Below are positions 2,540-50,300 of a DNA stretch of 64,000 nt, in pieces. Within the stretch, counting starts at the first letter, position 1; each line of letters starts with the position of its first letter. A program made the translations under genes and the position numbers. This DNA is from a virus. The stretch lies in IMG/VR virus record IMGVR_UViG_3300042377_000625, positions 28,344 through 92,343 of that record; one strand, given 5' to 3'. A model generated the notes under the pieces. That model was not told the DNA's origin. It made no database searches and saw only the letters and a program-made list of their open reading frames with translations.

Positions 2540-2953
2540 ATGAGCGAATTACGTAGATTAATCAAAGAACATTTATTATTAGAAAAGAAAATTGGGCATA
2601 TTATGGCCAAAATAGAAATTGCCTTTGGTTTTGAGATTGATAGAACTACCCACGCATATGAAAGAAAAAACAGAACTGATATTCCTGATTATAATGATAG
2701 AGAAATATCTAACGGTGAATTAAAATATATAATTGAGAGTTGTAGACGAGAAATTGCGGAAGGAATTACCACAGGAGAGATTAAAGATGATGTAGCATTT
2801 GTTATTAAATCAAAAGAAAAAGAAATCGCTATGGTCATAGTACCAAAACATGGTGGTGGCTCCTATTGGAAATTACTTATAATTACCGTTTTTAGAGAAT
2901 CGTATGATTTATCTTTTAGAGTTGGTAAAGACCAATTTGTTATTTGGATTTAA
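2540..2953 (+). CDS. Hypothetical protein, possible RelE/BECR-like fold; probable start is the ATG at 2540
   Basis: ORF-track start 2516 overlaps the terminator; N-terminal LRRLIKEHLLLE motif; HAYER and LIITVFR motifs. Confidence 0.6.
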   Translation: MSELRRLIKEHLLLEKKIGHIMAKIEIAFGFEIDRTTHAYERKNRTDIPDYNDREISNGELKYIIESCRREIAEGITTGEIKDDVAFVIKSKEKEIAMVIVPKHGGGSYWKLLIITVFRESYDLSFRVGKDQFVIWI

Positions 2954-3066
2954 AAAAGAACGGGACTTAGTATCTAAATCGTTTCTATCCCGTTCAAATT
3001 AGGAGGTTTTCGTCCTAACCATTATGATTGATTTAGTTGTATCTGAATCGTTTCCCTCAACCACAT
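2952..3066 (-). ncRNA. Candidate structured small RNA with a duplicated GAAACGAUUYAGAUAC loop motif
   Basis: Upstream TTG-N19-TATCTTTG promoter; several hairpins with minus-strand G-U wobbles; terminal hairpin plus U6; no substantial ORF. Confidence 0.5.
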
Positions 3067-3068
3067 TA

Positions 3069-3098
3069 CAAAGATAAGTAAATATACTGAATCCACAA
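3069..3098 (-). promoter_or_regulatory. Bacteroidota-type housekeeping promoter (-33 TTG, -7 TATCTTTG)
   Basis: Reverse complement of CAAAGATA (3069-3076) and CAA (3096-3098), spacer 19 nt. Confidence 0.55.
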
Positions 3099-3119
3099 CT
3101 TTTTTTTCGAAAAAACAGA

Positions 3120-3127
3120 TATTTATA
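3120..3127 (+). promoter_or_regulatory. Putative late promoter TATTTATA
   Basis: 18 nt upstream of ATG 3146. Confidence 0.6.
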
Positions 3128-3145
3128 TATTAAACAGAAATAGGT

Positions 3146-4021
3146 ATGAAAAAATTATATTTTTTAAATGAAGAAGAATCTAAAAGAATTCTAAATCTTC
3201 ATAAAGAAGCAACTAAAAAACAATATCTTAAAGAAGACGACACTATGATGTCATCTGAAAATGAGTTAGCCGAAGATGGTGTAATGGCGTCAATGGCAAC
3301 AGGTGCTGCAATTGGTGGAGCCGTTGGTTTAGTTCCAGGAGCAATTATCGGTGGAGCGATTGGATTAATTAACGGATTAATTAATGGTGGGAATTATTCT
3401 TACAAAGGTGCCGAAAAAATTTTACAAGCTTGTGGAAATTTAAAAGAAGTTGGTAAATCAACACTGAGTAGAGCCACATTAAATGGTATTGCCGATGGTA
3501 TTAACGCAGCGGTTGATGGTATGGGTACTGATGAGGATGCAATTAAAAGTAATCTACAAAAAATCACAACAATTCCTGATTTATGTGCGATGTCAAACAT
3601 ATATAATACAAGACATGGTGAAAGTTTATTCGCAGCAATTGATGGGGACATCGATTCTGAGGGTGAATGGAAACAATATGTTTTTTTACCATTATTAGAC
3701 GCATATGAAAACAGTGTTGACCTTGGTAAAAAATTGGCGGCACAAAAGGAATCAAGTGTCGTAAAGGGATTTGAAAAATTTCCTTGTATTCCAAGTAACC
3801 CAAAAGCGAAATCATCAAAATTGAGTGACGGTAGTATTGCTTACATAATTGATGGGGTGGTTTATTACGGGAATGGTAGAAAAAAATTGGTCGACGGAAC
3901 TATGGCCAGTTATTCTTGTGGTAAAGAATCGTCTAATACTAAGACAAATACTAAGACAAAAGTTAAACAACCAACAATACCTTCAGATACAGATTTAGAT
4001 ATGGTATTGACTAAACTTTAA
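3146..4021 (+). CDS. Putative virion protein with a glycine zipper and an annexin-like repeat
   Basis: GAAIGGAVGLVPGAIIGGAIG; AVDGMGTDEDAI...YNTRHGESLFAAIDGD resembles an annexin repeat; N-terminal LNEEESKRILNLH. Confidence 0.6.
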   Translation: MKKLYFLNEEESKRILNLHKEATKKQYLKEDDTMMSSENELAEDGVMASMATGAAIGGAVGLVPGAIIGGAIGLINGLINGGNYSYKGAEKILQACGNLKEVGKSTLSRATLNGIADGINAAVDGMGTDEDAIKSNLQKITTIPDLCAMSNIYNTRHGESLFAAIDGDIDSEGEWKQYVFLPLLDAYENSVDLGKKLAAQKESSVVKGFEKFPCIPSNPKAKSSKLSDGSIAYIIDGVVYYGNGRKKLVDGTMASYSCGKESSNTKTNTKTKVKQPTIPSDTDLDMVLTKL

Positions 4022-8279: not shown

Positions 8280-9755
8280 TTAATCTAAATACTTCATATT
8301 AACGATTTGAAATTTAACTTGTCGTTTGTATGTATTTATCTCTCCACTACTATCCACCTTAATATCTATATAATACTCGTTAGGTATTTTATCCCTAGTG
8401 TCAAACATAAAATAATATTCGTTTGGCGTCCTGTTGATTTTGGTCCAACCTTGAACCTCAACCTCAGTCTGGCCTTCTCTAACATATACTCTGTAGTGAG
8501 CGTCAACATTTTGTAAAAGTTTTTGAGTTGTGTAAGCTTGTTTAATGACAACACCAACTTTTCTAATATCAGTATTGTATATTTTTTCATCTTGTTTAAT
8601 ACCATAAAAGTCAAACCCATATAATTTAGGGTCGACTGAATTAGTACCAATCTGAATTGAATTTTTTAATGGTTGTATTGTAAACTCATTAAACGATTGG
8701 GGTAATGGGAAACCATTGTAATTTAAGTTGTACCATTTATCAGTAAACATACATGGTGTTTTATAACCAATTATTGGTGGTATAACAATTTCATAAACAC
8801 CTTTAGTTCTTTGACAAGCGGTTAACCCTGTTAATCCAGGAATGTCATTTCCCGATGAATCCATAATAGTAACACTTGGATTATTGTCTAAATTGATTGG
8901 GTTACCGTTATCAAACAAGTACAAATAAAGTTTGTTTGTTCTACCTAAAGAAAATAAGTTTCTATCATCTTCAATAAGGTCATTATAGTTTGTTTCTAAA
9001 AATGGTTCGTAAAATGTTTGAGTATGTCTTGTAAAAAATTGAGTTTCATAGGTATCAGTAAGACCTGATAAGTTTTCGACCTGAGGTTTGTAAGCAATTC
9101 CCCATCCTGTGACATTAGTTAATGAACCATCAATAATTGAATTAATTTCACTAGTCATGTCAAAACTAACGTTCTCATTACCAAATTCAAAATGTTGTGT
9201 GTCAACGATAGTTAATGAGCTAAAAGGAACAACCCCACTGTTTAAGTTATTGTAGACACCAGGCTCAGTCCAAACACCAATTGTCGTTGTTTGAAACCAA
9301 TTCGAGGGTCTATCAGAAAAAGATTTGTCCGTATCACTATATTCATAAACTAAATCAGCAAAATCATAACCAACACCTTCATCCCAAATCTGTGGGTTTA
9401 GTGGGTTGTTATTAATGTATGGGATTCTGAATAAAATTAAATCAAATGACGTGGCTCTTTTTCTACCTTGAGATGTTGAGGTGTTTAATAACTCAATATC
9501 AAAGGTTGAGGTATTCACCATTCTTAAAGTGTGAACAATTGTGTCGTTACAAGTTGTAGAAATTGTACCGTCATTTATCTTCTGAAATAGTAATGAAAGG
9601 TCTAAATCGAATATGAATCTACTATACCCACTAGGATATTGAGACACTGCGGTAGAACCATAAAACAATTCCGTAACTGGGTTTCTACCAGTATTGGTGA
9701 AACTGTTGGATATGATAGTATTGTTCTTACTAAAGTAGGAGTTATTAATTGACAT
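8280..9755 (-). CDS. Putative baseplate/tail structural protein
   Basis: Beta-rich 491 aa next to the spike gene; late motif at 9770-9777. Confidence 0.5.
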   Translation of the reverse strand: MSINNSYFSKNNTIISNSFTNTGRNPVTELFYGSTAVSQYPSGYSRFIFDLDLSLLFQKINDGTISTTCNDTIVHTLRMVNTSTFDIELLNTSTSQGRKRATSFDLILFRIPYINNNPLNPQIWDEGVGYDFADLVYEYSDTDKSFSDRPSNWFQTTTIGVWTEPGVYNNLNSGVVPFSSLTIVDTQHFEFGNENVSFDMTSEINSIIDGSLTNVTGWGIAYKPQVENLSGLTDTYETQFFTRHTQTFYEPFLETNYNDLIEDDRNLFSLGRTNKLYLYLFDNGNPINLDNNPSVTIMDSSGNDIPGLTGLTACQRTKGVYEIVIPPIIGYKTPCMFTDKWYNLNYNGFPLPQSFNEFTIQPLKNSIQIGTNSVDPKLYGFDFYGIKQDEKIYNTDIRKVGVVIKQAYTTQKLLQNVDAHYRVYVREGQTEVEVQGWTKINRTPNEYYFMFDTRDKIPNEYYIDIKVDSSGEINTYKRQVKFQIVNMKYLD

Positions 9756-33539: not shown

Positions 33540-36500
33540 ATGCCGAATTATCAAAGACTGACCGACAGAACCCAAGCTCCGATAGTATCTCCAGATGACA
33601 TTGTACACATTGTCATTACGGGTGATACATCACAAAACCCCGCAGGTTCATCATATAAAGCAAGTATCCAACAAATTGCGGATGCTCTATCCCTTGCTGG
33701 TACTTCAGGTACTGCAGGAACAAGTGGTGTTAATGGTTCATCAGGAACAAGTGGTGTTAATGGTTCGTCAGGTTCAAGTGGTCAAAATGGTACTTCAGGT
33801 TTAAGTGGTTCTTCAGGAAGTAGTGGAACATCAGGAAGTAGCGGTTCTTCGGGTAGTTCAGGAACTAAAGGAACATCAGGTTCAAGTGGTACTTCAGGAA
33901 TATCAGGTTCTAGTGGAACAAGTGGTTCATCAGGAAGTTCAGGTTCAAGTGGTTCATCAGGAAGTTCAGGTTCAAGTGGTTCTTCTGGTAGTAGTGGTTC
34001 TTCAGGAACTAACGGTTCTTCAGGAACTAACGGTTCTTCAGGAACTAACGGTTCATCGGGTTCATCGGGTTCTTCGGGTGAAAGTGGTTCATCAGGAACA
34101 TCGGGTACGTCAGGTAGTAGTGGTTCTTCTGGTAGTAGTGGTTCTTCAGGAACTAACGGCTCTTCAGGGACTAACGGCTCTTCAGGGACTAACGGCTCTT
34201 CAGGGACTAGTGGAAGTTCGGGTACTGATGGTTCATCAGGTACTTCAGGTACTGATGGTAGTTCAGGAACAAGTGGGACTGACGGTTCTTCAGGAACGTC
34301 AGGTTCTTCAGGAACAAGTGGGATTGACGGTTCTTCAGGAACTTCAGGAACTGACGGTAGTTCGGGAACTTCAGGTGCTGATGGTTCTTCGGGAACTTCA
34401 GGGTCTAGTGGTATAAGTGGTGTTAATGGTTCTTCAGGGACTTCAGGTATTAGTGGGACCGATGGTAGTTCAGGTACGTCAGGAAATAGTGGGTCTTCAG
34501 GAACATCAGGAACAGATGGTTCTTCAGGAACATCGGGCTCAAGCGGAACAAGTGGTACCAATGGTAGTTCAGGTACAAGTGGAACTGACGGTAGTTCAGG
34601 TACAAGTGGAACTGACGGTAGTTCAGGAACTAGTGGTATTGACGGTTCTTCAGGAACAAGCGGTACTGACGGTAGTTCAGGAACAGATGGTTCATCAGGA
34701 ACTAGTGGAACAGATGGTTCTTCAGGAACATCGGGCTCAAGTGGTACAGATGGTAGTTCAGGTACAAGCGGAACTGACGGTAGTTCAGGAACTTCAGGAA
34801 CAGATGGTTCATCAGGAACTAGCGGAAGTTCAGGAACAGATGGTTCATCAGGAACAAGTGGAACTGACGGAAGTTCAGGCACTTCGGGTTCAAGCGGATT
34901 AAGTGGTGTTGATGGTTCTTCAGGAACAAGTGGAACTGACGGTAGTTCAGGAACAGATGGTTCATCAGGAACTAGCGGAACTGACGGTAGTTCAGGAACA
35001 AGCGGAAGTTCAGGAACAGATGGTTCTTCAGGAACAAGTGGAACGGATGGTTCTTCAGGGACTAGCGGTTCTTCAGGAACAAGTGGGAGTTCAGGTACTT
35101 CAGGAACTGATGGTTCTTCAGGAACAAGTGGAACTGACGGTAGTTCAGGAACAAGTGGTACCGATGGTTCAAGTGGTACCTCGGGTTCAAGTGGAATTAG
35201 TGGTGTTAACGGAACTAATGGTACGTCAGGTTCTTCAGGAACAAGCGGAACAGATGGTTCATCAGGGACAAGCGGTAGTTCAGGAACAGATGGTTCATCA
35301 GGAACTAGTGGTACTAACGGTTCTTCAGGAACTAGCGGAACAGATGGTTCATCAGGAACAAGTGGAACTAGCGGAACAGATGGGTCATCGGGAACAAGTG
35401 GAACATCAGGTTCAAGTGGATTAAGTGGTGTTGACGGTTCTTCAGGAACAAGCGGAACAGACGGTTCTTCAGGAACTAGCGGTACTGATGGTTCTTCAGG
35501 AACAAGCGGAACTGATGGTTCTTCAGGTACTAGTGGAACAAGCGGAACAGATGGTTCTTCAGGAACAAGTGGAACATCAGGTTCAAGTGGATTAAGTGGT
35601 GTTGATGGTTCTTCAGGTACTTCAGGAACAGATGGTTCTTCAGGAACAAGTGGAAGTTCAGGTACTTCAGGAACAGATGGTTCATCAGGAACTAGCGGTA
35701 CTGACGGTAGTTCAGGTACTTCAGGAACATCGGGGTCAAGTGGTTCTTCAGGAACTAGCGGTACTGATGGTTCTTCAGGAACAAGCGGAACTGATGGTTC
35801 TTCAGGTACAAGTGGAAGTTCGGGTACTGATGGTTCTTCAGGTACAAGTGGAAGTTCTGGTACAAGCGGTTCTTCAGGTTCAGGCGGTTCCTCAGGAACA
35901 AGTGGAACAGATGGTAGTTCAGGTACTAGTGGAACAGATGGTTCTTCAGGTACTTCAGGGACAGATGGTTCATCAGGTACTTCAGGAACAGATGGGTCAT
36001 CGGGAACAAGTGGAAGTTCGGGTACTGACGGTAGTTCAGGAACTAGCGGAACTGATGGTTCTTCAGGAACATCGGGGTCAAGCGGATTAAGCGGTGTTGA
36101 TGGTTCTTCAGGTACAAGCGGAACTGACGGTTCTTCAGGGACTAGTGGGAGTTCAGGAACTGATGGTTCTTCAGGAACTAGTGGTACATCAGGTACAGAC
36201 GGCTCTTCAGGAACTAGCGGTACATCAGGTACAAGTGGGACAGATGGTAGTTCAGGAACCTCGGGTTCAAGTGGATTAAGTGGTGTTGATGGTTCTTCAG
36301 GAACTAGCGGAACTGACGGTAGTTCAGGAACAGATGGTTCTTCAGGAACTAGTGGAAGTTCAGGAACTAGTGGAAGTTCAGGTACAGATGGTTCTTCAGG
36401 AACAAGTGGAACGGATGGTTCTTCAGGGACTAGCGGTTCTTCAGGAAGTTCAGGAACAAGTGGTACTGACGGTTCTTCAGGAACTAGCGGGACAGATGGC

Positions 36501-39500
36501 TCGTCAGGTTCAAGTGGTATTAGTGGTGTGAATGGTTCATCAGGAACAAGCGGTACTAACGGTTCATCGGGGACCAGTGGTTCTTCAGGAACAGATGGTT
36601 CATCAGGAACAAGTGGTTCGTCAGGAACAAGTGGGACTGATGGTAGTTCAGGAACAAGCGGTACGGATGGTAGTTCAGGAACAAGCGGAACTGACGGTTC
36701 TTCAGGCACTAGCGGAACAGATGGTTCATCAGGTACTTCAGGTACTAGTGGAACAGATGGTTCATCAGGAACTAGCGGAACAGATGGTTCATCAGGAACA
36801 GATGGTTCTTCAGGAACTTCGGGAACAGATGGCTCTTCAGGTACTAGTGGAACTTCAGGAACAGATGGTAGTTCAGGAACAAGTGGAACTAATGGGAGTA
36901 GTGGAACATCAGGTTCAAGTGGATTAAGTGGTGTTGACGGTTCTTCAGGAACAAGCGGAACAGATGGTTCTTCAGGAACAAGTGGAAGTTCAGGTACTTC
37001 AGGAACAGATGGTTCTTCAGGAACAAGCGGAACAGATGGTTCTTCAGGGACTAGTGGGAGTTCAGGAACTGATGGTTCTTCAGGAACTAGTGGTACATCA
37101 GGTACAGACGGCTCTTCAGGAACTAGCGGTACATCAGGTACAGACGGCTCTTCAGGAACTAGCGGAAGTTCGGGAACTGATGGTTCTTCAGGAAGTAGTG
37201 GTACTTCAGGTACAGACGGCTCTTCAGGAACATCAGGTACTAGTGGAACCGATGGTTCTTCAGGAACAAGTGGAACCGATGGTTCTTCAGGAACAAGTGG
37301 AACTTCAGGAACAGACGGTTCTTCAGGAACATCAGGAACAGACGGTTCTTCAGGAACTTCAGGTACAGACGGCTCTTCAGGAACATCAGGTACTAGTGGA
37401 ACCGATGGTTCATCAGGAACAAGCGGAACTGATGGTTCTTCAGGAACATCGGGTTCAAGCGGATTAAGTGGTGTTGATGGTTCTTCAGGAACTTCAGGAA
37501 TAGATGGTTCTTCGGGAACTAGTGGTACTTCAGGTACTGATGGTTCATCGGGAACAAGTGGAAGTTCAGGTTCATCAGGAACTAGCGGTAGTTCAGGTAC
37601 TTCAGGAACATCAGGTTCAAGTGGATTAAGTGGTGTTGATGGTAGTTCAGGTACAAGTGGAACTGATGGTTCTTCAGGAACTAGCGGAACTGATGGTTCT
37701 TCAGGAACTAGCGGAACAAGTGGTACAGATGGTTCATCAGGAACTAGTGGTACTTCAGGTACGGATGGCTCATCAGGAACATCAGGTACTAGTGGAACAG
37801 ATGGTTCATCAGGAACATCAGGTACTAGTGGAACAGATGGTTCATCAGGAACAGATGGGTCAAGTGGAACTTCAGGAACAAGCGGAACTGACGGTAGTTC
37901 AGGTACAAGTGGAACAGATGGTTCATCAGGAACGGATGGTAGTAGCGGAACTTCAGGCTCAAGTGGTATTAGTGGTGTAAATGGTTCATCAGGAACAAGT
38001 GGTACATCTGGTTCAAGCGGAACAAGTGGCTCATCAGGAACTTCAGGGTCAAGTGGGACATCAGGTTCTAGTGGAACAAGTGGGTCTTCAGGTACAAGCG
38101 GGTCATCAGGTTCAAGTGGTTCGTCAGGAACAAGTGGTAGCTCGGGTACATCAGGCACTAGCGGTAGTTCAGGTTCATCGGGGACATCAGGTTCAAGTGG
38201 TTCGTCAGGAACTAGCGGAACAGATGGTTCTTCAGGAACATCGGGTTCTTCAGGAACATCAGGTTCAAGTGGTACTTCAGGTTCGTCAGGAACTAGTGGT
38301 TCATCAGGAACTAGCGGAACATCGGGGTCAAGCGGTTCTTCAGGGTCTAGCGGAACAAGTGGAACATCAGGAAGTTCAGGTTCATCAGGAAGTTCAGGGT
38401 CTAGTGGTTCGTCAGGTACTGCGGGTACAAGCGGAACGTCAGGAAGTTCAGGTTCATCAGGAACTAGCGGTAGTTCAGGTACAAGTGGTTCATCGGGAAC
38501 AAGTGGAACGTCAGGTTCTTCGGGTACTTCAGGAACTAATGGTTCATCAGGAACATCGGGTTCAAGTGGTTCATCGGGAACAAGTGGAACGTCAGGTTCT
38601 TCGGGTACTTCAGGAACAAGCGGTTCATCAGGAACAAGTGGTTCATCAGGAACAAGTGGTTCATCAGGAACAAGTGGTTCATCAGGAACTAACGGAAGTT
38701 CAGGAACTAGCGGAACTTCAGGTTCAAGTGGTACTTCAGGAACTAGTGGAAGTTCAGGGTCATCAGGTTCAAGTGGTTCTTCAGGAACTAGCGGAAGTTC
38801 AGGTACGTCAGGGACAAGTGGTTCTTCAGGAACATCAGGTACTAGCGGAACATCAGGTACAAGTGGTTCATCAGGAACTAGCGGAAGTTCAGGTACGTCA
38901 GGGACAAGTGGTTCTTCAGGAACTAGCGGAACTTCAGGTTCAAGTGGTTCATCAGGAACTAACGGGTCATCAGGAACTTCAGGTTCTGCGGGTACAAGTG
39001 GGACTAGCGGAACATCAGGTACTAGCGGAAGTTCAGGTACATCAGGAAGTTCAGGTTCTAGTGGTAGTTCAGGTTCATCAGGGTCTAGTGGGACAAGCGG
39101 TTCATCGGGGTCAAGCGGTTCTTCAGGTACTGCAGGTACAAGTGGAAGTAGTGGAACATCAGGGTCAAGCGGTTCTTCAGGTACAAGTGGAACATCAGGT
39201 TCTAGTGGTAGTTCAGGTTCTAGTGGAAGTAGTGGAACATCGGGAACGTCAGGTAGTTCAGGTTCAAGTGGTACATCGGGTAGTTCAGGAACGTCGGGGA
39301 CAAGTGGTTCTTCAGGAACTAGTGGAACTTCAGGTTCTTCAGGAACTAGCGGTTCTTCAGGTACGAGTGGCTCATCAGGTTCTTCAGGAACTAGCGGAAC
39401 TTCAGGTACGAGTGGCTCATCAGGAACATCAGGTTCATCAGGTAGTTCGGGCTCAAGTGGAACAAGTGGTTCGTCAGGAACAAGTGGTAGCTCGGGTACA

Positions 39501-41192
39501 TCAGGCACTAGCGGTAGTTCAGGTTCAAGTGGCTCATCAGGTTCATCAGGGTCTAGTGGGACAAGTGGTTCTTCAGGAACTGCAGGTACATCAGGTTCAT
39601 CAGGAACTTCAGGTACGTCTGGCTCAAGTGGTAGTAGCGGTTCATCAGGTTCAAGTGGTTCATCAGGAACTTCAGGTAGTTCAGGTTCAAGCGGTAGTAG
39701 CGGCTCTTCAGGAACTGCGGGTACTAGTGGAACGTCAGGAAGTTCAGGTTCGTCGGGGTCAAGTGGTTCTTCAGGAACTAGCGGAACTTCAGGTTCAAGT
39801 GGTAGTTCGGGGTCTTCAGGTTCTAGTGGTAGTTCGGGGTCTTCAGGAACATCAGGAACAAGCGGTTCTTCAGGAACTGCAGGTACATCAGGCACAAGCG
39901 GAAGTAGTGGAACATCGGGTAGTTCAGGAACAAGCGGTTCATCGGGGTCAAGTGGTTCTTCAGGAAGTAGCGGTTCTTCAGGAACTGCGGGTACAAGTGG
40001 AAGTAGTGGAACATCGGGGTCAAGCGGTTCTTCGGGTTCATCAGGTTCTAGTGGAAGTAGTGGAACTTCGGGTTCTTCGGGTAGTTCAGGAACAAGTGGT
40101 TCATCAGGAACTGCGGGTACAAGCGGAACATCAGGTAGTTCAGGTTCATCAGGAACTTCAGGGAGTAGTGGAACATCGGGTTCATCAGGAACCGCGGGTA
40201 CAAGCGGAAGTAGTGGAACATCGGGAACATCAGGTTCTAGTGGTAGTTCGGGTTCTTCAGGAACTGCGGGTACAAGTGGAACATCAGGTTCAAGTGGTTC
40301 CTCAGGTAGTTCAGGGTCTAGTGGTACAAGTGGAACGTCAGGTTCTTCAGGAACAAGCGGGTCTTCAGGTTCTTCAGGAACATCGGGTTCAAGTGGAACT
40401 GCAGGTACATCAGGAAGTAGTGGAACATCAGGAACAAGTGGTTCTTCAGGAACATCGGGTACGTCAGGTAGTTCAGGAACATCGGGTACGTCAGGTAGTT
40501 CAGGAACATCGGGTACGAGCGGAACTTCAGGTACGAGTGGCTCATCAGGAACATCGGGTAGTTCGGGCTCAAGCGGAACATCAGGTAGTTCTGGTTCATC
40601 AGGAACAAGCGGTTCTTCAGGAACATCGGGTACAAGTGGTTCTTCGGGAACTACGGGTACGAGCGGAACAAGTGGTTTGCAAGGAACTAGTGGGACATCA
40701 GGGACAAGTGGGACATCAGGTTCTTCAGGTACAAGTGGTTTATCTCCTGTCGTATCAGGTAATGATAATGAAGTATTAACTTCAGATGGTGCGGGTGGTA
40801 TAACATCAGAACCTAATTTAACCTTTGATGGTACTACTTTAGGAATAACAGGTGACACTATTGAACAAGGTAATCAGTCATTACAATCATGTAGAGAAAC
40901 AGGTGTTACAACAACAACATTAATTTGTCGTTTTCCATTCGCATCAGGTTCAAGTGCAACATTTGATTATTACGTATACGATTCTGGAACAAACGCGATG
41001 AGAAGTGGTATTATTATGACAGTGTGGGACGGAACTAATACGGCATTTACTGATAGTTCAACACCTGATTTAAACGCTTCAACGGTGGCGGTTAAATTCT
41101 ACACAGTAATTATAGGTTCAAATCTTGAGTTGTACGCAGCAATTGGAGGCGGAACTTGGGATATAAGTGTAGGAACAAGGATTGTCTTCTAA
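33540..41192 (+). CDS. Giant Gly-X-Y (Ser/Thr/Asp) repeat fibre protein 1, 2550 aa
   Basis: Short N-terminal anchor; about 2350 aa with Gly at every third residue; C-terminal fibre-like domain (NEVLTSDG...EPNLTFDG); late motif at 33516. Confidence 0.85.
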   Translation: MPNYQRLTDRTQAPIVSPDDIVHIVITGDTSQNPAGSSYKASIQQIADALSLAGTSGTAGTSGVNGSSGTSGVNGSSGSSGQNGTSGLSGSSGSSGTSGSSGSSGSSGTKGTSGSSGTSGISGSSGTSGSSGSSGSSGSSGSSGSSGSSGSSGSSGTNGSSGTNGSSGTNGSSGSSGSSGESGSSGTSGTSGSSGSSGSSGSSGTNGSSGTNGSSGTNGSSGTSGSSGTDGSSGTSGTDGSSGTSGTDGSSGTSGSSGTSGIDGSSGTSGTDGSSGTSGADGSSGTSGSSGISGVNGSSGTSGISGTDGSSGTSGNSGSSGTSGTDGSSGTSGSSGTSGTNGSSGTSGTDGSSGTSGTDGSSGTSGIDGSSGTSGTDGSSGTDGSSGTSGTDGSSGTSGSSGTDGSSGTSGTDGSSGTSGTDGSSGTSGSSGTDGSSGTSGTDGSSGTSGSSGLSGVDGSSGTSGTDGSSGTDGSSGTSGTDGSSGTSGSSGTDGSSGTSGTDGSSGTSGSSGTSGSSGTSGTDGSSGTSGTDGSSGTSGTDGSSGTSGSSGISGVNGTNGTSGSSGTSGTDGSSGTSGSSGTDGSSGTSGTNGSSGTSGTDGSSGTSGTSGTDGSSGTSGTSGSSGLSGVDGSSGTSGTDGSSGTSGTDGSSGTSGTDGSSGTSGTSGTDGSSGTSGTSGSSGLSGVDGSSGTSGTDGSSGTSGSSGTSGTDGSSGTSGTDGSSGTSGTSGSSGSSGTSGTDGSSGTSGTDGSSGTSGSSGTDGSSGTSGSSGTSGSSGSGGSSGTSGTDGSSGTSGTDGSSGTSGTDGSSGTSGTDGSSGTSGSSGTDGSSGTSGTDGSSGTSGSSGLSGVDGSSGTSGTDGSSGTSGSSGTDGSSGTSGTSGTDGSSGTSGTSGTSGTDGSSGTSGSSGLSGVDGSSGTSGTDGSSGTDGSSGTSGSSGTSGSSGTDGSSGTSGTDGSSGTSGSSGSSGTSGTDGSSGTSGTDGSSGSSGISGVNGSSGTSGTNGSSGTSGSSGTDGSSGTSGSSGTSGTDGSSGTSGTDGSSGTSGTDGSSGTSGTDGSSGTSGTSGTDGSSGTSGTDGSSGTDGSSGTSGTDGSSGTSGTSGTDGSSGTSGTNGSSGTSGSSGLSGVDGSSGTSGTDGSSGTSGSSGTSGTDGSSGTSGTDGSSGTSGSSGTDGSSGTSGTSGTDGSSGTSGTSGTDGSSGTSGSSGTDGSSGSSGTSGTDGSSGTSGTSGTDGSSGTSGTDGSSGTSGTSGTDGSSGTSGTDGSSGTSGTDGSSGTSGTSGTDGSSGTSGTDGSSGTSGSSGLSGVDGSSGTSGIDGSSGTSGTSGTDGSSGTSGSSGSSGTSGSSGTSGTSGSSGLSGVDGSSGTSGTDGSSGTSGTDGSSGTSGTSGTDGSSGTSGTSGTDGSSGTSGTSGTDGSSGTSGTSGTDGSSGTDGSSGTSGTSGTDGSSGTSGTDGSSGTDGSSGTSGSSGISGVNGSSGTSGTSGSSGTSGSSGTSGSSGTSGSSGTSGSSGTSGSSGSSGSSGTSGSSGTSGTSGSSGSSGTSGSSGSSGTSGTDGSSGTSGSSGTSGSSGTSGSSGTSGSSGTSGTSGSSGSSGSSGTSGTSGSSGSSGSSGSSGSSGTAGTSGTSGSSGSSGTSGSSGTSGSSGTSGTSGSSGTSGTNGSSGTSGSSGSSGTSGTSGSSGTSGTSGSSGTSGSSGTSGSSGTSGSSGTNGSSGTSGTSGSSGTSGTSGSSGSSGSSGSSGTSGSSGTSGTSGSSGTSGTSGTSGTSGSSGTSGSSGTSGTSGSSGTSGTSGSSGSSGTNGSSGTSGSAGTSGTSGTSGTSGSSGTSGSSGSSGSSGSSGSSGTSGSSGSSGSSGTAGTSGSSGTSGSSGSSGTSGTSGSSGSSGSSGSSGTSGTSGSSGSSGTSGSSGTSGTSGSSGTSGTSGSSGTSGSSGTSGSSGSSGTSGTSGTSGSSGTSGSSGSSGSSGTSGSSGTSGSSGTSGTSGSSGSSGSSGSSGSSGTSGSSGTAGTSGSSGTSGTSGSSGSSGSSGSSGSSGTSGSSGSSGSSGSSGTAGTSGTSGSSGSSGSSGSSGTSGTSGSSGSSGSSGSSGSSGSSGTSGTSGSSGTAGTSGTSGSSGTSGSSGTSGSSGSSGSSGSSGSSGTAGTSGSSGTSGSSGSSGSSGSSGSSGTSGSSGSSGTSGSSGTAGTSGTSGSSGSSGTSGSSGTSGSSGTAGTSGSSGTSGTSGSSGSSGSSGTAGTSGTSGSSGSSGSSGSSGTSGTSGSSGTSGSSGSSGTSGSSGTAGTSGSSGTSGTSGSSGTSGTSGSSGTSGTSGSSGTSGTSGTSGTSGSSGTSGSSGSSGTSGSSGSSGTSGSSGTSGTSGSSGTTGTSGTSGLQGTSGTSGTSGTSGSSGTSGLSPVVSGNDNEVLTSDGAGGITSEPNLTFDGTTLGITGDTIEQGNQSLQSCRETGVTTTTLICRFPFASGSSATFDYYVYDSGTNAMRSGIIMTVWDGTNTAFTDSSTPDLNASTVAVKFYTVIIGSNLELYAAIGGGTWDISVGTRIVF
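33699..40745 (+). repeat. 9-bp-period degenerate coding repeat (GGN-WSN-WSN)
   Basis: GTS/GSS/GTD/GTA triplets with synonymous variation. Confidence 0.95.
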
Positions 41193-41342: not shown

Positions 41343-44300
41343 ATGGCAAATGAATTCATAGCCCGCAATGGGGTCAAATCTTTAGGTGGCGTAACAGTAC
41401 CTTATAAATCAGTGTCAAGTGCTTATAGCGTGTCAACTGATGATTATCTTATCGAGGGGTCTTCGAATGCCCCATTTTCAGTAACATTACCCACCTCAGT
41501 TGGTATTTCGGGTAAAATATACGTTGTTAAAAATACAGGGTCAGCGACCATAACGGTAAATACAACGTCAAGCCAAACAATTGATGGTAGTACTACTAAA
41601 ACATTAACCACAGATAATTCTCTTTATGTACAGAGTAATGGTACTGGATGGTTAATTATTGGTATTAACGGAACATCAGGAACAAGTGGAACATCAGGTA
41701 GTTCGGGAACAAGTGGTTCGTCAGGTACAAGCGGAACATCGGGTTCAAGTGGAAGTAGTGGTTCATCAGGAACTTCGGGTACGTCTGGCTCAAGTGGTAG
41801 TAGCGGTTCATCAGGTTCAAGTGGGTCTTCGGGTTCATCAGGAACAAGCGGAACATCAGGTTCAAGTGGAAGTAGTGGTTCATCAGGAACTGCTGGTACA
41901 TCAGGGTCTTCAGGTTCAAGTGGTTCATCAGGATTGAGTGGAACTTCAGGAACATCAGGTTCAAGTGGAAGTAGTGGTTCATCAGGAACTGCGGGAACAA
42001 GCGGAAGTTCAGGGTCTAGTGGGTCTTCAGGTACATCAGGAAGTTCAGGTTCTTCAGGGACTGCGGGCACAAGTGGAAGTTCAGGCTCTAGCGGGTCATC
42101 TGGTAGTAGTGGTACATCAGGGTCTTCAGGTTCAAGCGGAACAAGTGGTACGTCAGGTAGTTCAGGAACTGCGGGTACTTCAGGCTCAAGTGGTGTAAGT
42201 GGTACATCAGGAACATCAGGTTCTTCGGGGTCTAGTGGTTCTTCAGGTACATCAGGAACAGGTGGTACTTCAGGTTCAAGTGGAACATCAGGCTCAAGTG
42301 GAAGTAGTGGTAGTTCGGGTTCATCAGGAACTGCGGGTACTTCAGGTAGTTCAGGTTCTTCAGGAACAAGTGGTTCTTCAGGTACTTCAGGTAGTTCGGG
42401 AACAAGCGGAACTTCGGGCTCTTCAGGTACTAGTGGAACGTCAGGTAGTTCAGGTACAAGTGGAACATCAGGCTCAAGTGGAAGTAGTGGTAGTTCAGGT
42501 TCAAGTGGGTCTTCAGGAACTGCGGGTACATCAGGTAGTGCTGGTACAAGTGGAACATCAGGTTCATCAGGAAGTTCAGGTTCAAGCGGTACTAGCGGTT
42601 CTTCAGGAACTTCAGGTAGTGCTGGTACAAGTGGAACATCAGGAACAAGCGGTTCATCAGGGACTAGCGGAACAAGTGGTTCGTCAGGTAGTTCAGGTTC
42701 AAGTGGGTCGTCAGGTAGTTCAGGTTCAAGTGGTACTGCGGGTACAAGTGGTTCTTCAGGAACTAGCGGAACATCAGGTAGTTCAGGTTCAAGCGGAAGT
42801 TCAGGTGTAAGTGGTACATCAGGAACCTCAGGTTCTTCAGGAAGCTCAGGTTCAAGTGGTTCTTCAGGTAGTGCTGGTACAAGTGGGACATCAGGTTCAT
42901 CTGGTTCAAGTGGTTCTTCAGGAACTAGCGGAACATCAGGTTCAAGTGGAACTGCGGGAACAAGTGGCTCATCAGGTAGTTCAGGTTCAAGTGGAACTTC
43001 AGGTTCAAGTGGTAGTAGTGGCTCGTCAGGTTCCTCGGGGACAAGCGGTACGTCAGGCTCAAGTGGTAGTTCAGGTTCTTCAGGAACATCTGGAACTAGC
43101 GGAACATCAGGTTCATCAGGAACTTCGGGAACGTCAGGTTCATCAGGAACTGCGGGAACGTCAGGTTCTAGTGGAAGTTCAGGTTCAAGTGGTTCTTCAG
43201 GTAGTTCGGGTTCAAGCGGAACATCAGGTACTTCAGGTTCATCAGGAACTAGCGGAACAAGTGGTTCTTCAGGTAGTTCGGGTTCAAGCGGAAGTAGTGG
43301 AACAAGCGGAAGTAGTGGAACATCAGGAACTTCAGGTTCATCAGGAACTTCAGGTTCATCAGGTACCTCAGGGTCAAGTGGAAGTAGTGGTTCATCAGGT
43401 TCAAGTGGTTCTTCAGGTACTTCAGGTAGTACTGGTACAAGTGGGACATCAGGAACAAGCGGTTCTTCAGGAACTGCGGGTACATCAGGAAGTAGTGGAA
43501 GTTCGGGTTCGAGTGGTTCTTCAGGAACTAGCGGTACTTCAGGGTCATCAGGAACAAGTGGTTCTTCAGGAAGTTCGGGTACATCAGGAACTAGAGGTAC
43601 TTCAGGTTCTTCAGGAACATCAGGAACAAGTGGAACGTCAGGTTCAAGTGGAAGTAGTGGTTCATCAGGGACTGCGGGTACAAGTGGCTCATCAGGGACT
43701 GCAGGTACTAGCGGTAGTTCGGGGTCAAGTGGGTCTTCGGGTTCGAGTGGTAGTAGCGGTTCTTCAGGAACTTCTGGAACTAGAGGTACGTCAGGTTCTT
43801 CGGGGACTAGCGGAACATCAGGTTCGTCAGGTACTAGCGGAACTTCAGGTTCAAGTGGAATTAGTGGTGTTAATGGAACTAATGGTACATCAGGTTCTTC
43901 GGGTTCAAGTGGAAGTAGTGGAACATCAGGGTCTTCAGGTACTAGCGGTTCTTCAGGTAGTTCAGGTAGTTCAGGTTCAAGTGGTTCTTCAGGAACATCA
44001 GGTTCGAGTGGAACATCAGGAACTAGAGGTACGTCAGGTTCTTCGGGAACGAGTGGTACATCAGGAACGAGTGGTACATCAGGTTCATCGGGTTCAAGCG
44101 GAAGTAGTGGCTCATCAGGAACTGCTGGTACGAGTGGAAGTTCAGGCTCAAGTGGCTCGTCAGGTACAAGCGGTTCATCAGGTTCAAGCGGTAGTTCGGG
44201 TTCGAGTGGAAGTAGCGGAACATCAGGAACTGCGGGAACGTCAGGTTCTAGTGGAAGTTCAGGAACATCAGGGTCGAGTGGTTCTTCAGGTTCTTCAGGA

Positions 44301-47300
44301 AGTAGTGGAAGTTCAGGTACAAGTGGTTCTTCTGGAACTTCAGGCTCATCAGGCTCATCAGGAACTGCGGGTAGTTCAGGTACGAGCGGAACGTCAGGTT
44401 CATCAGGAACAAGCGGAACGTCAGGGAGTTCGGGCTCAAGTGGTACATCTGGAACAAGTGGAACGTCAGGTTCTTCAGGGTCAAGTGGTACGAGTGGTAT
44501 AAGCGGAACCTCAGGTACTAGCGGAACATCAGGTAGTAGTGGTAGTTCAGGTTCTTCTGGGTCAAGTGGTTCTTCAGGAACTGCGGGCACATCAGGAAGT
44601 GCGGGAACAAGCGGAACTTCAGGTAGTTCAGGTTCAAGTGGTAGTAGTGGTTCTTCAGGAACTGCGGGTACATCAGGAAGTAGTGGAAGTTCGGGCTCGA
44701 GTGGTTCTTCAGGAACATCGGGTACAAGCGGAAGTTCGGGTTCATCAGGTTCTTCGGGGACTAGCGGAACTTCAGGTACATCAGGTAGTTCAGGTTCAAG
44801 CGGTTCATCAGGAACTAGCGGAACATCAGGTTCAAGTGGTTCTTCAGGTAGTTCAGGTTCAAGCGGAACATCAGGTTCTAGTGGTTCATCAGGAAGTAGT
44901 GGAAGTTCAGGGACTGCGGGTACATCAGGTAGTGCTGGTACAAGTGGAACATCAGGTTCTAGCGGTTCGTCAGGAAGTAGTGGAAGTTCAGGGACTGCAG
45001 GTACAAGTGGAACATCAGGTTCTAGCGGTTCTTCGGGTACATCAGGTTCAAGCGGTACATCAGGTTCAAGCGGTAGTAGTGGTTCTTCAGGTACTTCAGG
45101 AACAAGAGGTACGTCAGGTTCTTCAGGGACAAGTGGAACTAGCGGAACATCAGGAACTAGCGGAACATCAGGCTCAAGTGGTAGTAGTGGTTCATCAGGA
45201 ACAAGTGGAACAAGTGGGTCTTCAGGTTCAAGTGGGAGTAGTGGTAGTTCGGGTTCATCAGGAACTGCGGGTACATCTGGCTCAAGTGGAACTGCGGGAA
45301 CAAGCGGTTCGTCAGGTAGTTCAGGGTCTAGTGGTTCTTCAGGTTCAAGTGGAAGTTCGGGAGTAAGCGGTACGTCAGGAACTAGTGGAACATCAGGTTC
45401 GAGTGGTACATCAGGTACGTCAGGAAGTTCAGGGTCATCAGGTTCTTCGGGTAGTTCAGGCTCAAGTGGAACAAGTGGTTCATCAGGAACTAGCGGTACT
45501 TCAGGTTCAAGTGGTTCATCAGGAACCTCAGGTTCAAGTGGTTCGTCAGGTAGTTCAGGTTCAAGTGGAAGTAGTGGTTCATCAGGAACATCAGGAACTA
45601 GAGGTACGTCAGGGTCTTCAGGTACAAGTGGAACAAGTGGTTCATCAGGTACAAGTGGAACTTCAGGTTCTAGTGGAAGTAGTGGTTCGTCAGGTACATC
45701 TGGCTCAAGTGGGACTGCGGGAACAAGTGGTTCATCAGGAAGTTCAGGTTCAAGTGGTAGTTCAGGTTCAAGCGGTAGTAGCGGGTCGTCAGGCTCAAGT
45801 GGTACTTCAGGGACAAGCGGTTCATCAGGTAGTTCAGGTTCTAGTGGTAGTAGTGGAACTTCAGGAACAAGAGGTACGTCAGGTTCTTCGGGAACAAGTG
45901 GAACTAGCGGAACGTCAGGTTCAAGTGGTAGTAGTGGTTCTTCAGGAACATCAGGATTAAGTGGTACTTCAGGCACTAGCGGAACATCAGGTAGTAGTGG
46001 TTCTTCAGGTAGTTCAGGTTCAAGTGGAAGTTCGGGGGTAAGTGGTACATCAGGAACTAGCGGAACATCGGGCTCTTCAGGAAGTTCAGGTTCGAGTGGG
46101 AGTAGTGGCTCTTCAGGAACATCAGGTAGTTCGGGGTCAAGTGGTAGTAGCGGTTCATCAGGTACTAGTGGTAGTAGCGGTTCTTCAGGAAGTTCGGGTA
46201 CATCAGGAACTAGAGGTACTTCAGGTTCTTCAGGAACAAGTGGAACTTCAGGATTAAATGGGACTGCAGGAACTAGCGGAACTTCAGGGTCAAGTGGTTC
46301 TTCAGGTACAAGTGGAACAAGTGGGTCTAGTGGTAGTTCAGGTTCAAGCGGTAGTAGCGGTTCATCAGGAACTAGCGGAACGTCAGGTTCTTCAGGTAGT
46401 AGTGGTTCGTCAGGTTTGTCAGGTACAAGTGGAACATCAGGTTCATCAGGAAGTTCAGGTTCAAGTGGGTCTTCAGGAAGTTCAGGAACATCAGGTTCAT
46501 CTGGTAGTAGTGGTTCTTCAGGTTCTTCGGGAACAAGTGGTTCTTCAGGTTCTAGTGGAACTTCAGGTACTAGAGGTACGTCAGGTAGTTCAGGAACAAG
46601 TGGGACTTCAGGTTTAAGTGGAACATCAGGTACTAGCGGAACGTCAGGCTCAAGCGGTTCTTCAGGTTCAAGTGGTTCATCAGGAACTGCGGGAACATCA
46701 GGTAGTTCAGGGTCAAGCGGCAGTAGCGGTTCATCAGGAACTGCGGGAACATCAGGTAGTTCAGGAACTAGTGGTTCTTCGGGTTCAAGTGGTAGTAGTG
46801 GTTCATCAGGTACGTCAGGGTCAAGTGGTTCTAGCGGTAGTTCAGGAACTTCAGGTACAAGAGGTACTTCGGGGTCAAGTGGTACTAGTGGTGTGAGCGG
46901 TACATCAGGTACTAGCGGAACATCAGGTACTAGCGGAACATCAGGAAGTAGTGGTTCTTCAGGAAGTTCAGGTTCAAGTGGTGTAAGTGGTACTTCAGGG
47001 ACTGCTGGTACATCAGGAAGTAGCGGGTCATCAGGTTCAAGTGGTTCTTCAGGTTCTTCAGGAAGTTCAGGTTCTAGTGGAACTTCAGGTACATCAGGTT
47101 CGAGTGGTAGTTCGGGTTCTAGCGGTAGTTCGGGGATAAGTGGAACATCAGGAACATCAGGTTCATCTGGTAGTAGTGGTTCTTCAGGTTCTAGTGGAAC
47201 TTCAGGTACTAGAGGTACGTCAGGTAGTTCAGGAACAAGTGGGACTTCAGGTTTAAGTGGGACTGCGGGAACTAGCGGAACGTCAGGTTCAAGTGGTAGT

Positions 47301-50300
47301 TCAGGTTCAAGCGGTTCTTCAGGAACTGCGGGAACATCAGGTAGTTCAGGGTCAAGTGGTAGTAGCGGTTCATCAGGAACAAGTGGAACGTCAGGTTCTT
47401 CGGGTAGTAGTGGTAGTTCAGGTTCTTCGGGTTCAAGTGGGACATCGGGTACTAGAGGTACTTCAGGTTCATCAGGAACTAGCGGAACATCAGGTTCTTC
47501 AGGAACTAGCGGAACATCAGGAAGTAGTGGTTCTTCAGGAAGCTCAGGTTCATCAGGAAGTTCAGGCTCATCAGGAACTTCAGGTGTTAGCGGTTCTTCA
47601 GGAAGTTCAGGTACAAGTGGTTCTTCAGGGTCAAGTGGTTCATCAGGAAGCTCAGGTGTTAGTGGTTCTTCAGGTAGTTCAGGTTCATCAGGAACTAGCG
47701 GAACATCAGGTTCTTCAGGTAGTTCAGGAAGTTCAGGTTCAAGCGGAACATCAGGTACTAGAGGTACTTCAGGTTCTTCAGGAACTGCGGGTACGAGTGG
47801 GGTTAATGGAGCTTCATCATGTATCACATGGTTATCAGATACTTCGAATACAACTATACCAGCATCAACTCGTATTTCTTACGGACCTGTAAACGTTATT
47901 AATAGTTTAAACACAATATACGTAAATAAAACATCATATAATCCTAGTGTTGATACATCGGCTTGGTGGACAGGGTTACAAAACTACGTAACTGCAAATG
48001 GTGCGGGTAGTGCTTATATAACAGTTGTTGAAGTTGAAACAGGATTGGTTGGGATATATACCGTAAACTCAGTTTCATTAGCGGGCAATGTTTACACAGT
48101 GTCTGTGGCGGTTAATAGTGGAGGTGTTAGTTCATGGACAAACAATTATAATCATTGTATAAATTGGGTTGGAAGTGGTAAATCAGGGACAAGTGGAACA
48201 TCGGGAACTAGAGGTACTTCAGGTTCATCAGGAACTAGCGGAACATCAGGAACAAGTGGTTCAAGCGGTTCTTCGGGAAGTTCAGGTTCAAGTGGTTCTT
48301 CAGGAAGTTCAGGTTCAAGCGGTTCTTCAGGAACTTCAGGTACAAGTGGTTCTTCAGGGTCAAGTGGTTCTTCAGGAACTTCAGGTGTTAGCGGTTCTTC
48401 AGGAAGTTCAGGTACAAGTGGTTCTTCAGGTAGTTCAGGTTCAAGTGGAAGTAGCGGTAGTTCAGGAACTAGTGGAATTTCAGGTTCAAGTGGTAGTTCA
48501 GGTTCATCAGGTTCAAGTGGAAGTTCAGGTTCATCAGGAACAAGTGGAACATCGGGTTCAAGTGGTAGTTCAGGAAGTTCAGGTTCAAGTGGAACATCGG
48601 GTACTAGAGGTACTTCAGGTTCTTCAGGAACATCAGGTACAAGTGGAACGTCAGGAAGTTCAGGTTCAAGCGGTTCTTCAGGAACTAGCGGAACATCAGG
48701 TAGTTCAGGTTCATCAGGAACGTCAGGTTCAAGTGGTTCTTCAGGTAGTTCAGGTTCAAGTGGTTCGTCAGGAACTGCGGGTACGTCAGGAGTTTCAGGA
48801 GCATCGGGCGTTTCAGGAACAAGTGGGACATCAGGAAATTCAGGGTCAAGCGGTACTAGCGGAACTTCAGGAAGTTCAGGTTCATCAGGAAGTTCAGGTT
48901 CAAGTGGTACTAGCGGAAATTCAGGTTCATCAGGAAGTTCAGGTTCAAGTGGTTCTTCAGGTAGTTCAGGAAGTAGTGGTACATCAGGTAGTTCAGGAAG
49001 TAGCGGTACATCAGGTAGTTCAGGTTCTTCAGGAAGTTCAGGAACATCAGGTACTAGAGGTACTTCAGGTTCTTCAGGAACATCAGGAACAAGTGGAACA
49101 TCAGGTTCATCGGGCTCATCAGGAAGTAGCGGCTCATCAGGGTCTTCAGGAACAAGTGGAGTATCAGGTTCATCAGGTTCATCAGGTTCATCAGGTTCAT
49201 CAGGTTCATCAGGTTCAAGTGGTACTAGCGGAAATTCAGGTTCATCAGGAAGTTCAGGAAGTAGTGGTTCTTCAGGTTCAAGTGGAACATCGGGTACTAG
49301 AGGTACTTCAGGTTCGTCAGGTACTTCAGGTACTTCAGGTTCGTCAGGAACAAGTGGTATTACCGCAAATGATGGGTCAAACTCAGGTAGATGGGAATAT
49401 AAAGGAGTTGGGGTTGGGTTGGACCCATTAGCAACACGTTTCGCGACAAGTAATGCAACTCAAGGGTTATATAACAATTTGACAATTAATGTATTAGACT
49501 ATGCTGGGACTAATTATACAAATTGGTTTAAAGCTCTTGCGTTAGTTGTTGGATTAGGTAATAAAGTATTTTTCCAAGTAACTAAATTAGGGGATAATTC
49601 TAATATTGCAATTTATGAGATAACAACCATAGTTGATAACACTACATGGTTTGATATTAACTTTTCTTCAAGTTTAGTTGGAAGTGGTGTGTTAACCAGT
49701 GGTGATGTATGTACAATTTCATGGGTTTATAATGGTAAATCGGGAACAAACGGAACTTCAGGTTCAAGTGGAACATCGGGTACTAGAGGTACTTCAGGTT
49801 CATCAGGAACTAGCGGAACGTCAGGAACAAGTGGTTCATCAGGAAGTTCAGGAAGTAGCGGTTCTTCAGGAAGTTCAGGAACATCAGGTACTAGAGGTAC
49901 TTCAGGTTCTTCAGGAACATCAGGAACAAGTGGAACATCAGGTTCTTCGGGTAGCTCAGGTAGTTCAGGAAGTTCAGGTTCATCAGGAAGTTCAGGTTCA
50001 AGCGGATTGACGGGTGTTGCAGGAACTTCAGGTACATCAGGTGGTGGTGGTGGTTCCATTGCGATTTACGATGAGGGTACTTTAGTAACATCAAGTGCGG
50101 TTAGTTTAAATTTTGCGGGTACTTGTATAACGGCGGTTGATGATGGTGGTGGAGCAATTACCGTTGGAATTGACTGCTCAAAGATATATGTAATTGCTTC
50201 AACTTCAGCAACCATTGGTGACTTTCAAGTGAATGAATCTCTCGACAATTATCGTATTGGAGACTCGGCTTGCGGATGGAATGGATGTGAATGGACTGTC

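Follow-up and report, generated by a model that had tools for sequence, protein, structure and literature searches.

A predicted small RNA gene of a T4-like phage with a conserved loop motif on covarying hairpins

We describe a gene in a T4-like phage that, as judged from its sequence, encodes a stand-alone small RNA of ~110 nt (minus strand, 3063-2952 of the window). The window is the whole stretch of 64,000 nucleotides that was analysed and corresponds to bases 28344-92343 of a 92-kb IMG/VR virus contig (CheckV completeness estimate 31%). The conserved unit of the RNA is a stem-loop module in which a variable stem closes a large loop of ~20 nt with the near-invariant core ACGAUUYAGAUAC. The RNA is an uncatalogued family within a known kind, the small structured phage RNAs with conserved loops: no family of Rfam 15 (4227 models) matched the whole window at gathering score, a search of window 2850-3200 at E ≤ 10 returned only four chance-level rows (14-26 bits), and a full-text literature search found no description of an RNA with ACGAUUYAGAUAC loops. 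The reading that we tentatively prefer is a trans-acting RNA whose loops would bind a protein, possibly a RelE-fold RNase.

The phage is classed as T4-like because a Gp23-type major capsid gene is located at 597-2468, and its host class is Bacteroidota-type. The contig has a G+C content of ~30%, and phage GenBank records contain no similar DNA. The RNA gene lies in the gap between the 137-aa ORF that follows the capsid gene and a 291-aa ORF (3146-4021, +). The original prediction described this gap as ORF-free, which is correct except that the U-tract ending the RNA shares 2 nt with the stop codon (2951-2953) of the convergent 137-aa ORF. An A+T-rich motif, (T)ATTTATAT(A), is present just 5' of both flanking plus-strand ORFs (2528-2540 and 3118-3130, +); its counterparts in related loci are GATATTTATATAATA and TATATTTATTTT, and it looks like the late promoter that these related phages use. 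A 12-bp G+C-rich hairpin flanked by T-runs (2488-2515) comes immediately 3' of the capsid gene and resembles a bidirectional terminator. Further along the window, two giant plus-strand ORFs (33540-41192, 2550 aa; 41343-50696, 3117 aa) have a G+C content of 0.46-0.49 vs ~0.30 elsewhere, a strong skew towards G over C, and opposite-strand frames that stay open for very long stretches; they probably encode repetitive fibre/adhesin-like proteins.

Table 1. Features of the small RNA gene and its convergent neighbour (window coordinates)
Feature	Position	Strand	Remarks
Convergent 137-aa ORF, N-terminal LRxLIKExLLLEK leader	2540..2953	+	Conserved neighbour of two-/three-hairpin RNAs
-33 element TTG, Bacteroidota-type promoter	3096..3098	-	Direct reading; 19 nt upstream of -7 box
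-7 box TATCTTTG (TAnnTTTG)	3069..3076	-	Same place in nearly all 38 distinct relatives
Hairpin 1 (5' module)	3023..3065	-	9-bp stem with two G-U pairs, motif in 25-nt loop; MFE fold
Loop motif copy 1, GAAACGAUUCAGAUAC	3039..3054	-	Exact match
Hairpin 2 (middle)	2997..3020	-	7-8-bp stem, A-rich loop; MFE fold
Hairpin 3 (3' module)	2958..2995	-	G+C-rich 9-bp stem, motif in 20-nt loop; MFE fold
Loop motif copy 2, GAAACGAUUUAGAUAC	2970..2985	-	Exact match
U6 tract ending RNA	2952..2957	-	Direct reading

The anatomy of the gene (Table 1) agrees closely with what had been predicted. The minus-strand host-type promoter, TTG-N19-TATCTTTG, is present and is the sole match to such a promoter pattern that we read as intergenic in the window; in the contig, a module lies 3' of two of the ~9 loose host-type promoter-pattern matches read as intergenic. 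The expected ~110-nt RNA ends in hairpin 3 followed by U6, which together form an intrinsic terminator. The duplicated loop motif GAAACGAUUYAGAUAC, proposed at 2970-2985 and 3039-3054, is found there as two exact minus-strand copies of GAAACGATTYAGATAC, with the predicted further hairpin between them. When up to three mismatches are allowed, the motif has seven matches in the window vs 1.6 expected, and seven was reached in none of 100 shuffles. Formation of hairpin 1 requires two G-U pairs that are available on the minus strand only, in line with the strand assignment made originally. The folding energy of the single sequence is unremarkable (z = -1.3), and the case therefore rests on comparison with relatives.

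Relatives of the element are found in dozens of viral contigs. It is located directly 3' of the ORF in 13 of 13 viral contigs encoding relatives of the 137-aa ORF (57-100% identity), and a motif scan of IMG/VR yielded many further loci, a set from which chance motif matches inside coding DNA were excluded. RNAalifold predicted the three hairpins from 24 sequences, with a compensatory change in 12 of 20 pairs. A covariance-model alignment collected 58 matches, representing 38 distinct sequences, and among the latter 93.8% of the cells in stem columns are paired vs 31-47% after sliding of the partner columns and 73% for shuffled controls. Compensatory changes on both sides occur in 23 of 24 pairs: eight of nine in helix 1, all seven in hairpin 2 (e.g., UUAGGAC/CCUCCUAA vs AUAAGUC/GACUUAU) and all eight in helix 3. 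G-U or U-G combinations fill 66 cells vs 15 for A-C or C-A, an excess that fixes the RNA strand as the minus strand of the window. The promoter element TAnnTTTG is kept nearly throughout the relatives, and the last stem is followed by 5-10 U in most of them, a few forms having an interrupted or short run. Public metatranscriptomes provided two records (word share 0.06), in which a piece of a relative's contig covers 2915-2985 and strand, ends and expression are not readable.

The comparison also bears on two other explanations raised with the original prediction. A peptide encoded by the 14-codon ORF from ATG 3066 is rejected as the conserved unit: the ORF is confined to the window's own variant, the ATG is ATT in the closest relatives, and no ORF starting with ATG is present in 13 of the 35 distinct sequences that were examined. 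A DNA-level site, in which a DNA-binding protein would use the 16-bp motif as its operator immediately 3' of early promoters, is extremely improbable. The motif is asymmetric, keeps a fixed distance from the promoter and occurs two to three times per genome, as an operator might. However, the flanking inverted repeats change compensatorily and, on only one of the strands, accept G-T while rejecting A-C, and compensatory changes together with a G-U excess are a signature of RNA, not of duplex DNA.

As proposed from the single sequence, conserved loops are carried on different stems. Variation affects the stems, flanks and middle hairpin and extends to the type of phage, while the loop core remains near-invariant, no copy departing from it by more than one base (G to A in the L036 group, Y to A in L016/L019). 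In alignment A1, most core columns of loop copy 1 are invariant. The core is usually set within GGRAACGAUUYAGAUACWA, and the conserved stretch of 13-17 bases is shared by T4-like, jumbo and 31-kb phages. Modules are present in one to three copies per genome, in elements of 55-125 nt and in three layouts. Besides the three-hairpin RNA of the window, there are two-hairpin RNAs that lack the middle hairpin (L025, L029, L052, L060, L063 and others), two-module RNAs being ~95-125 nt long, and there are single hairpins in which a promoter is followed after 12-17 nt by one module; the same distance from TAnnTTTG holds for all 5' modules. The single modules of L021/L122, L049, L092 and L067 are followed by a U-run and then a second, similar promoter, and those of L021, L049 and L092 head phage tRNA arrays on the same strand. 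A 385-kb jumbo phage genome (95% complete) contains exactly one true module, arranged as promoter, hairpin, U9 and second promoter. A complete 31-kb phage has a two-module RNA on the same strand as its small flanking genes. In several relatives (L006:3600-3700, L008:2560-2660 and the corresponding position of L007 and L009-L012), a conserved block, AGTTTATCAGTCCCCAGCC..GCTGTTGAGTATTCACGGA.AC.AAGGTATTGGTAAC, takes the place of the gene that otherwise follows the RNA. The block has the stem CAGCC/GGCTG with a variable loop and may be a further structured RNA; Rfam scans of L006, L008 and L010 gave no matches.

Two copies of the module are linked to GOLLD RNA (Rfam RF02032), one in L081 (GOLLD score 322 bits) and the other in this same phage, where the module is at contig 8602-8615 and GOLLD scores 326.8 bits, the whole arrangement spanning contig G000:C1 ~8440-9560 (locus L127:1340-2461). 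The GOLLD RNA of this phage is located 3' of two near-identical tandem host-type promoters with the module hairpin between them. In both linked copies the module is followed by an A-run or other sequence, the second promoter, a boxA-like GTTCTTTGACA and GOLLD. Neither has a U-run, and these modules are therefore read as parts of longer transcripts. An extra promoter at contig 8442 is followed by a short hairpin-rich stretch ending in an A-run.

The convergent 137-aa ORF is a conserved neighbour of the two- and three-hairpin RNAs. ORF and RNA are arranged tail-to-tail in 62 loci (44-100% amino-acid identity), most of them behind a capsid gene; the L029 group is inside tRNA arrays with no capsid gene nearby. 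The ORF family consists of metagenomic hypothetical proteins only. No Pfam family above cutoff, no PHROG match and no match in a PDB profile search were found for it, and Atlas gave only a 0.80 lead to DUF4258. An AF2 model built from an 80-sequence alignment (pLDDT 87.4) was compared with known folds. Most of the top 30 matches to the core (residues 29-128) are RelE, ParE, HigB, YoeB, YafQ, BrnT and MqsR toxins, CdiA-CT toxins, colicin E5/D and T4 RegB. The best VIA-align match is RelE (Z 6.2, rmsd 3.2 Å over 77 residues), with T4 RegB at Z 4.9; all Z values fall short of 8, the tool's caution line, and no Foldseek match to the model reached E ≤ 0.001. A RelE/ParE-like (BECR) ribonuclease fold of the modelled core is possible, and we treat it as a lead, not a finding. 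His38 is nearly invariant among 80 homologues. The best-conserved stretch among close relatives is the leader LRxLIKExLLLEK (residues 1-16, window 2540-2590), which could be a head-targeting or protease-cleaved leader. The leader is missing in a distant homologue encoded by the jumbo phage 54 kb from its module (hhalign 99%, E 3e-18), and the complete 31-kb phage with the two-module RNA has no homologue of the ORF.

Searches for host copies, targets and partners of the loop were largely negative. The motif together with its promoter had no match in 185,579 cellular species genomes. The 18-mer had 57 matches in the same genomes vs ~140 expected by chance (a hand estimate), none of them in an array, and the 13-mer core was present at most three times in any of 401 Bacteroidia-class genomes, a frequency that by eye resembles that of a reversed-pattern control. 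These counts argue against a mimic of a CRISPR repeat or of a repeated host antitoxin RNA, and equally against a copy of the RNA encoded by hosts and a conserved host target with perfect complementarity. The suggestion of an RNA anti-CRISPR accordingly lost its support, although the loop may mimic part of a CRISPR repeat. The alternative suggestion of a type III antitoxin mimic fared no better: the RNA has no tandem repeats, and it is convergent with its neighbour gene instead of upstream on the same strand. The general class of mechanism proposed at the outset, a protein-binding decoy, is still the most plausible candidate.

Several specific candidates were rejected. Among the 18-mer matches only three sites look module-like; they are in Flavobacteriaceae/Bacteroidetes MAG contigs (L138, L170 and L179) and look like binned phage DNA. 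For a trans target within the phage, the best RNAduplex energy in the 92-kb contig, the modules' own antisense strands aside, was -18.5 kcal/mol, a value inside the range given by shuffles (-15 to -21); only those antisense strands were complementary beyond chance, and the scan did not support GOLLD as a target of the loop. The loop core GAUU(Y)AGAUAC resembles the 16S '790 loop' GGAUUAGAUAC with one extra base, but local alignment to a Bacteroidia-class rRNA operon was no better than that of 33% of shuffled loops, and the best matches in the operon fell elsewhere. A shared phage protein partner was sought among the ORFs of the 31-kb phage, which are common to none of the module-bearing loci except a related small phage. 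Phage S21 was considered as a partner and dismissed: it is encoded in three module-bearing records (including G001 and G008) and is absent from the complete 31-kb phage, and it is probably a lineage marker. In the contig of this phage, a bS21 homologue (PF01165, 30.6 bits, 68-aa frame) is located at G000:C1:25542-25700 (-), locus L219.

Since no RNA partner was found, a protein partner is the simplest reading. The loop is fixed across T4-like, jumbo and 31-kb phages while its surroundings change, which points to a common conserved molecular partner. In the mechanism that we tentatively propose, host RNA polymerase would transcribe the RNA from the Bacteroidota-type promoter, and the RNA's own hairpin and U6 would terminate it. 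The loops would then present a binding surface through which the RNA titrates, blocks or recruits a protein. The most concrete candidate partner is a RelE/RegB-fold ribonuclease, for which the loop could be a pseudo-substrate or inhibitor; it might be the phage's own 137-aa late protein or, where a phage lacks that gene, similar host toxins. Action in trans is consistent with self-contained genes that have their own promoter and terminator and often a fresh promoter right after, with selection on single-stranded loop bases amid changing stems and phage types, and with the stand-alone one-module genes of the jumbo phage and of L021, L049 and L092. The two GOLLD-linked modules, lacking a U-run, do not fit a stand-alone gene. 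A RelE-fold partner is suggested by the tail-to-tail pairing, kept both behind the capsid gene and in tRNA arrays, by the distant ORF homologue that the jumbo phage also has, and by the near-invariance of His38. Against it stand the low fold scores (Z at most 6.2, nothing significant in Foldseek, no Pfam family), the 54-kb separation in the jumbo phage, and the complete 31-kb phage, whose two-module RNA has same-strand neighbours and no ORF homologue to accompany it.

In a stronger version, which we consider quite improbable, the RNA would serve as antidote to a RelE-fold ribonuclease that the capsid delivers. This enzyme would be the 137-aa late protein, whose leader ends in LLLE-K (as in T4 head-targeting peptides); it would be packaged in heads and, once injected, would attack host RNA. 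The two-loop RNA, made early from the host-type promoter, would bind the protein as a pseudo-substrate and leave the producing cell unharmed, while one-loop RNAs beside tRNA arrays or GOLLD would do likewise or mark protected transcripts. If true, this would be the first RNA antitoxin for an enzyme of the RelE superfamily and would link GOLLD/tRNA islands to RNase warfare.

For the T4-like layout, the main rival to a trans-acting, protein-binding RNA is cis-antisense action, which we judge unlikely. The RNA from the early promoter would pair with the opposite-running late polycistronic mRNA, as lambda OOP does with cII or as 3'-overlapping type I antitoxins do; loop-loop kissing would come first, and pairing would lead to cleavage or would uncouple the RelE-fold ORF from the next gene. 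The RNA is indeed convergent on the ORF, with its U-tract overlapping the stop codon, and the pairing is kept in 62 loci. In addition, no plus-strand terminator is present between 2953 and the next ORF at 3146, so the late mRNA is expected to span the complement of the entire RNA, which leaves room for an antisense effect. The only strong loop duplexes in the contig are with the modules' antisense strands, and the GOLLD-linked module could also kiss the late mRNA. Yet antisense pairing needs no particular sequence, and the loop core is near-invariant among unrelated phages; moreover, the single module of the jumbo phage has no complementary site in the 95%-complete genome, and the RNA of the 31-kb phage is on the same strand as its neighbours. 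Pairing might instead be with a host mRNA or stable RNA, the exposed 13-17-nt loop serving as seed. Long single-stranded conserved loops are typical of seeds, and the variants seen most often, Y at one site and R at two, are transitions compatible with a fixed G or U in the target. We regard a base-pairing small RNA of this kind as rather improbable, given that perfect complements of the 13-mer (401 Bacteroidia-class genomes) and of the 18-mer (185,579 species genomes) are not above chance.

The position of the modules raises another explanation, to which we give a similarly low probability: the promoter-proximal hairpin could be a cis-acting leader of the boxB/nut or put kind, a mark by which its transcript is processed, stabilised or anti-terminated; the short RNAs that end at the terminator would be by-products or attenuated forms. 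The uniform 12-17 nt spacing of the 5' modules after TAnnTTTG is consistent with a leader, as is the placement of modules before GOLLD in two phages (with the boxA-like GTTCTTTGACA further on), before tRNA arrays and, in the 31-kb phage, before small genes; the L029 RNA is likewise directed towards a tRNA array. In the window, however, only antisense sequence lies downstream. Most forms have a good terminator followed by a fresh promoter, the terminator hairpin itself carries the same loop, and the 385-kb genome has one copy, not one per operon.

Knowledge of phage small RNAs is sparse and, for Bacteroidota phages, close to nil. The RNA described here adjoins three items of open function, namely a putative RNase-fold late protein, phage tRNA arrays and GOLLD RNA. 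At 55-125 nt, the element is small enough for pull-down and mutational work and is ready for RNA family catalogues.

Among known systems, the sponge RNAs CsrB and RsmZ are similar in that one short sequence is repeated in the loops of different hairpins of a short, terminator-ended RNA and selection acts on loops rather than stems. They differ in that the phage RNA has one or two copies of a 13-17-nt motif that is not GGA, GGA not being invariant in it; Bacteroidota are not known to encode CsrA. As in ToxIN, a structured RNA adjoins a gene for a putative ribonuclease-fold protein, and the idea of an RNA pseudo-substrate is shared. In ToxI, 36-nt direct repeats form a tandem array upstream of the toxin gene on the same strand, whereas the phage RNA has two loops on unrelated stems and is convergent, and the predicted fold of its neighbour points to RelE/ParE, not ToxN. 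Lambda OOP and the 3'-overlapping type I antitoxin RNAs also have their own promoter and terminator and converge on the 3' end of a protein gene; in the phage RNA, by contrast, the coding overlap is only 2 nt, and the loop is conserved in unrelated phages, also where no gene lies on the opposite strand. With boxB/nut and put it shares promoter-proximal hairpins, conservation of loop rather than stem and few copies per genome. Unlike those elements, the phage modules have loops of ~20 nt, the hairpin is followed by, or built into, a terminator, in most cases with a second promoter after it, and a single copy is present in 385 kb. The RNA anti-CRISPRs, which are solitary repeat units, are likewise small phage RNAs proposed as decoys, but the phage motif is in no repeat array of the genomes searched. 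Finally, the tRNA region of T4 encodes the stable small RNAs species 1 and 2 beside its tRNA arrays, and the RNAs described here, compared with them by description only, are similarly phage small RNAs beside the tRNA arrays of T4-type phages.
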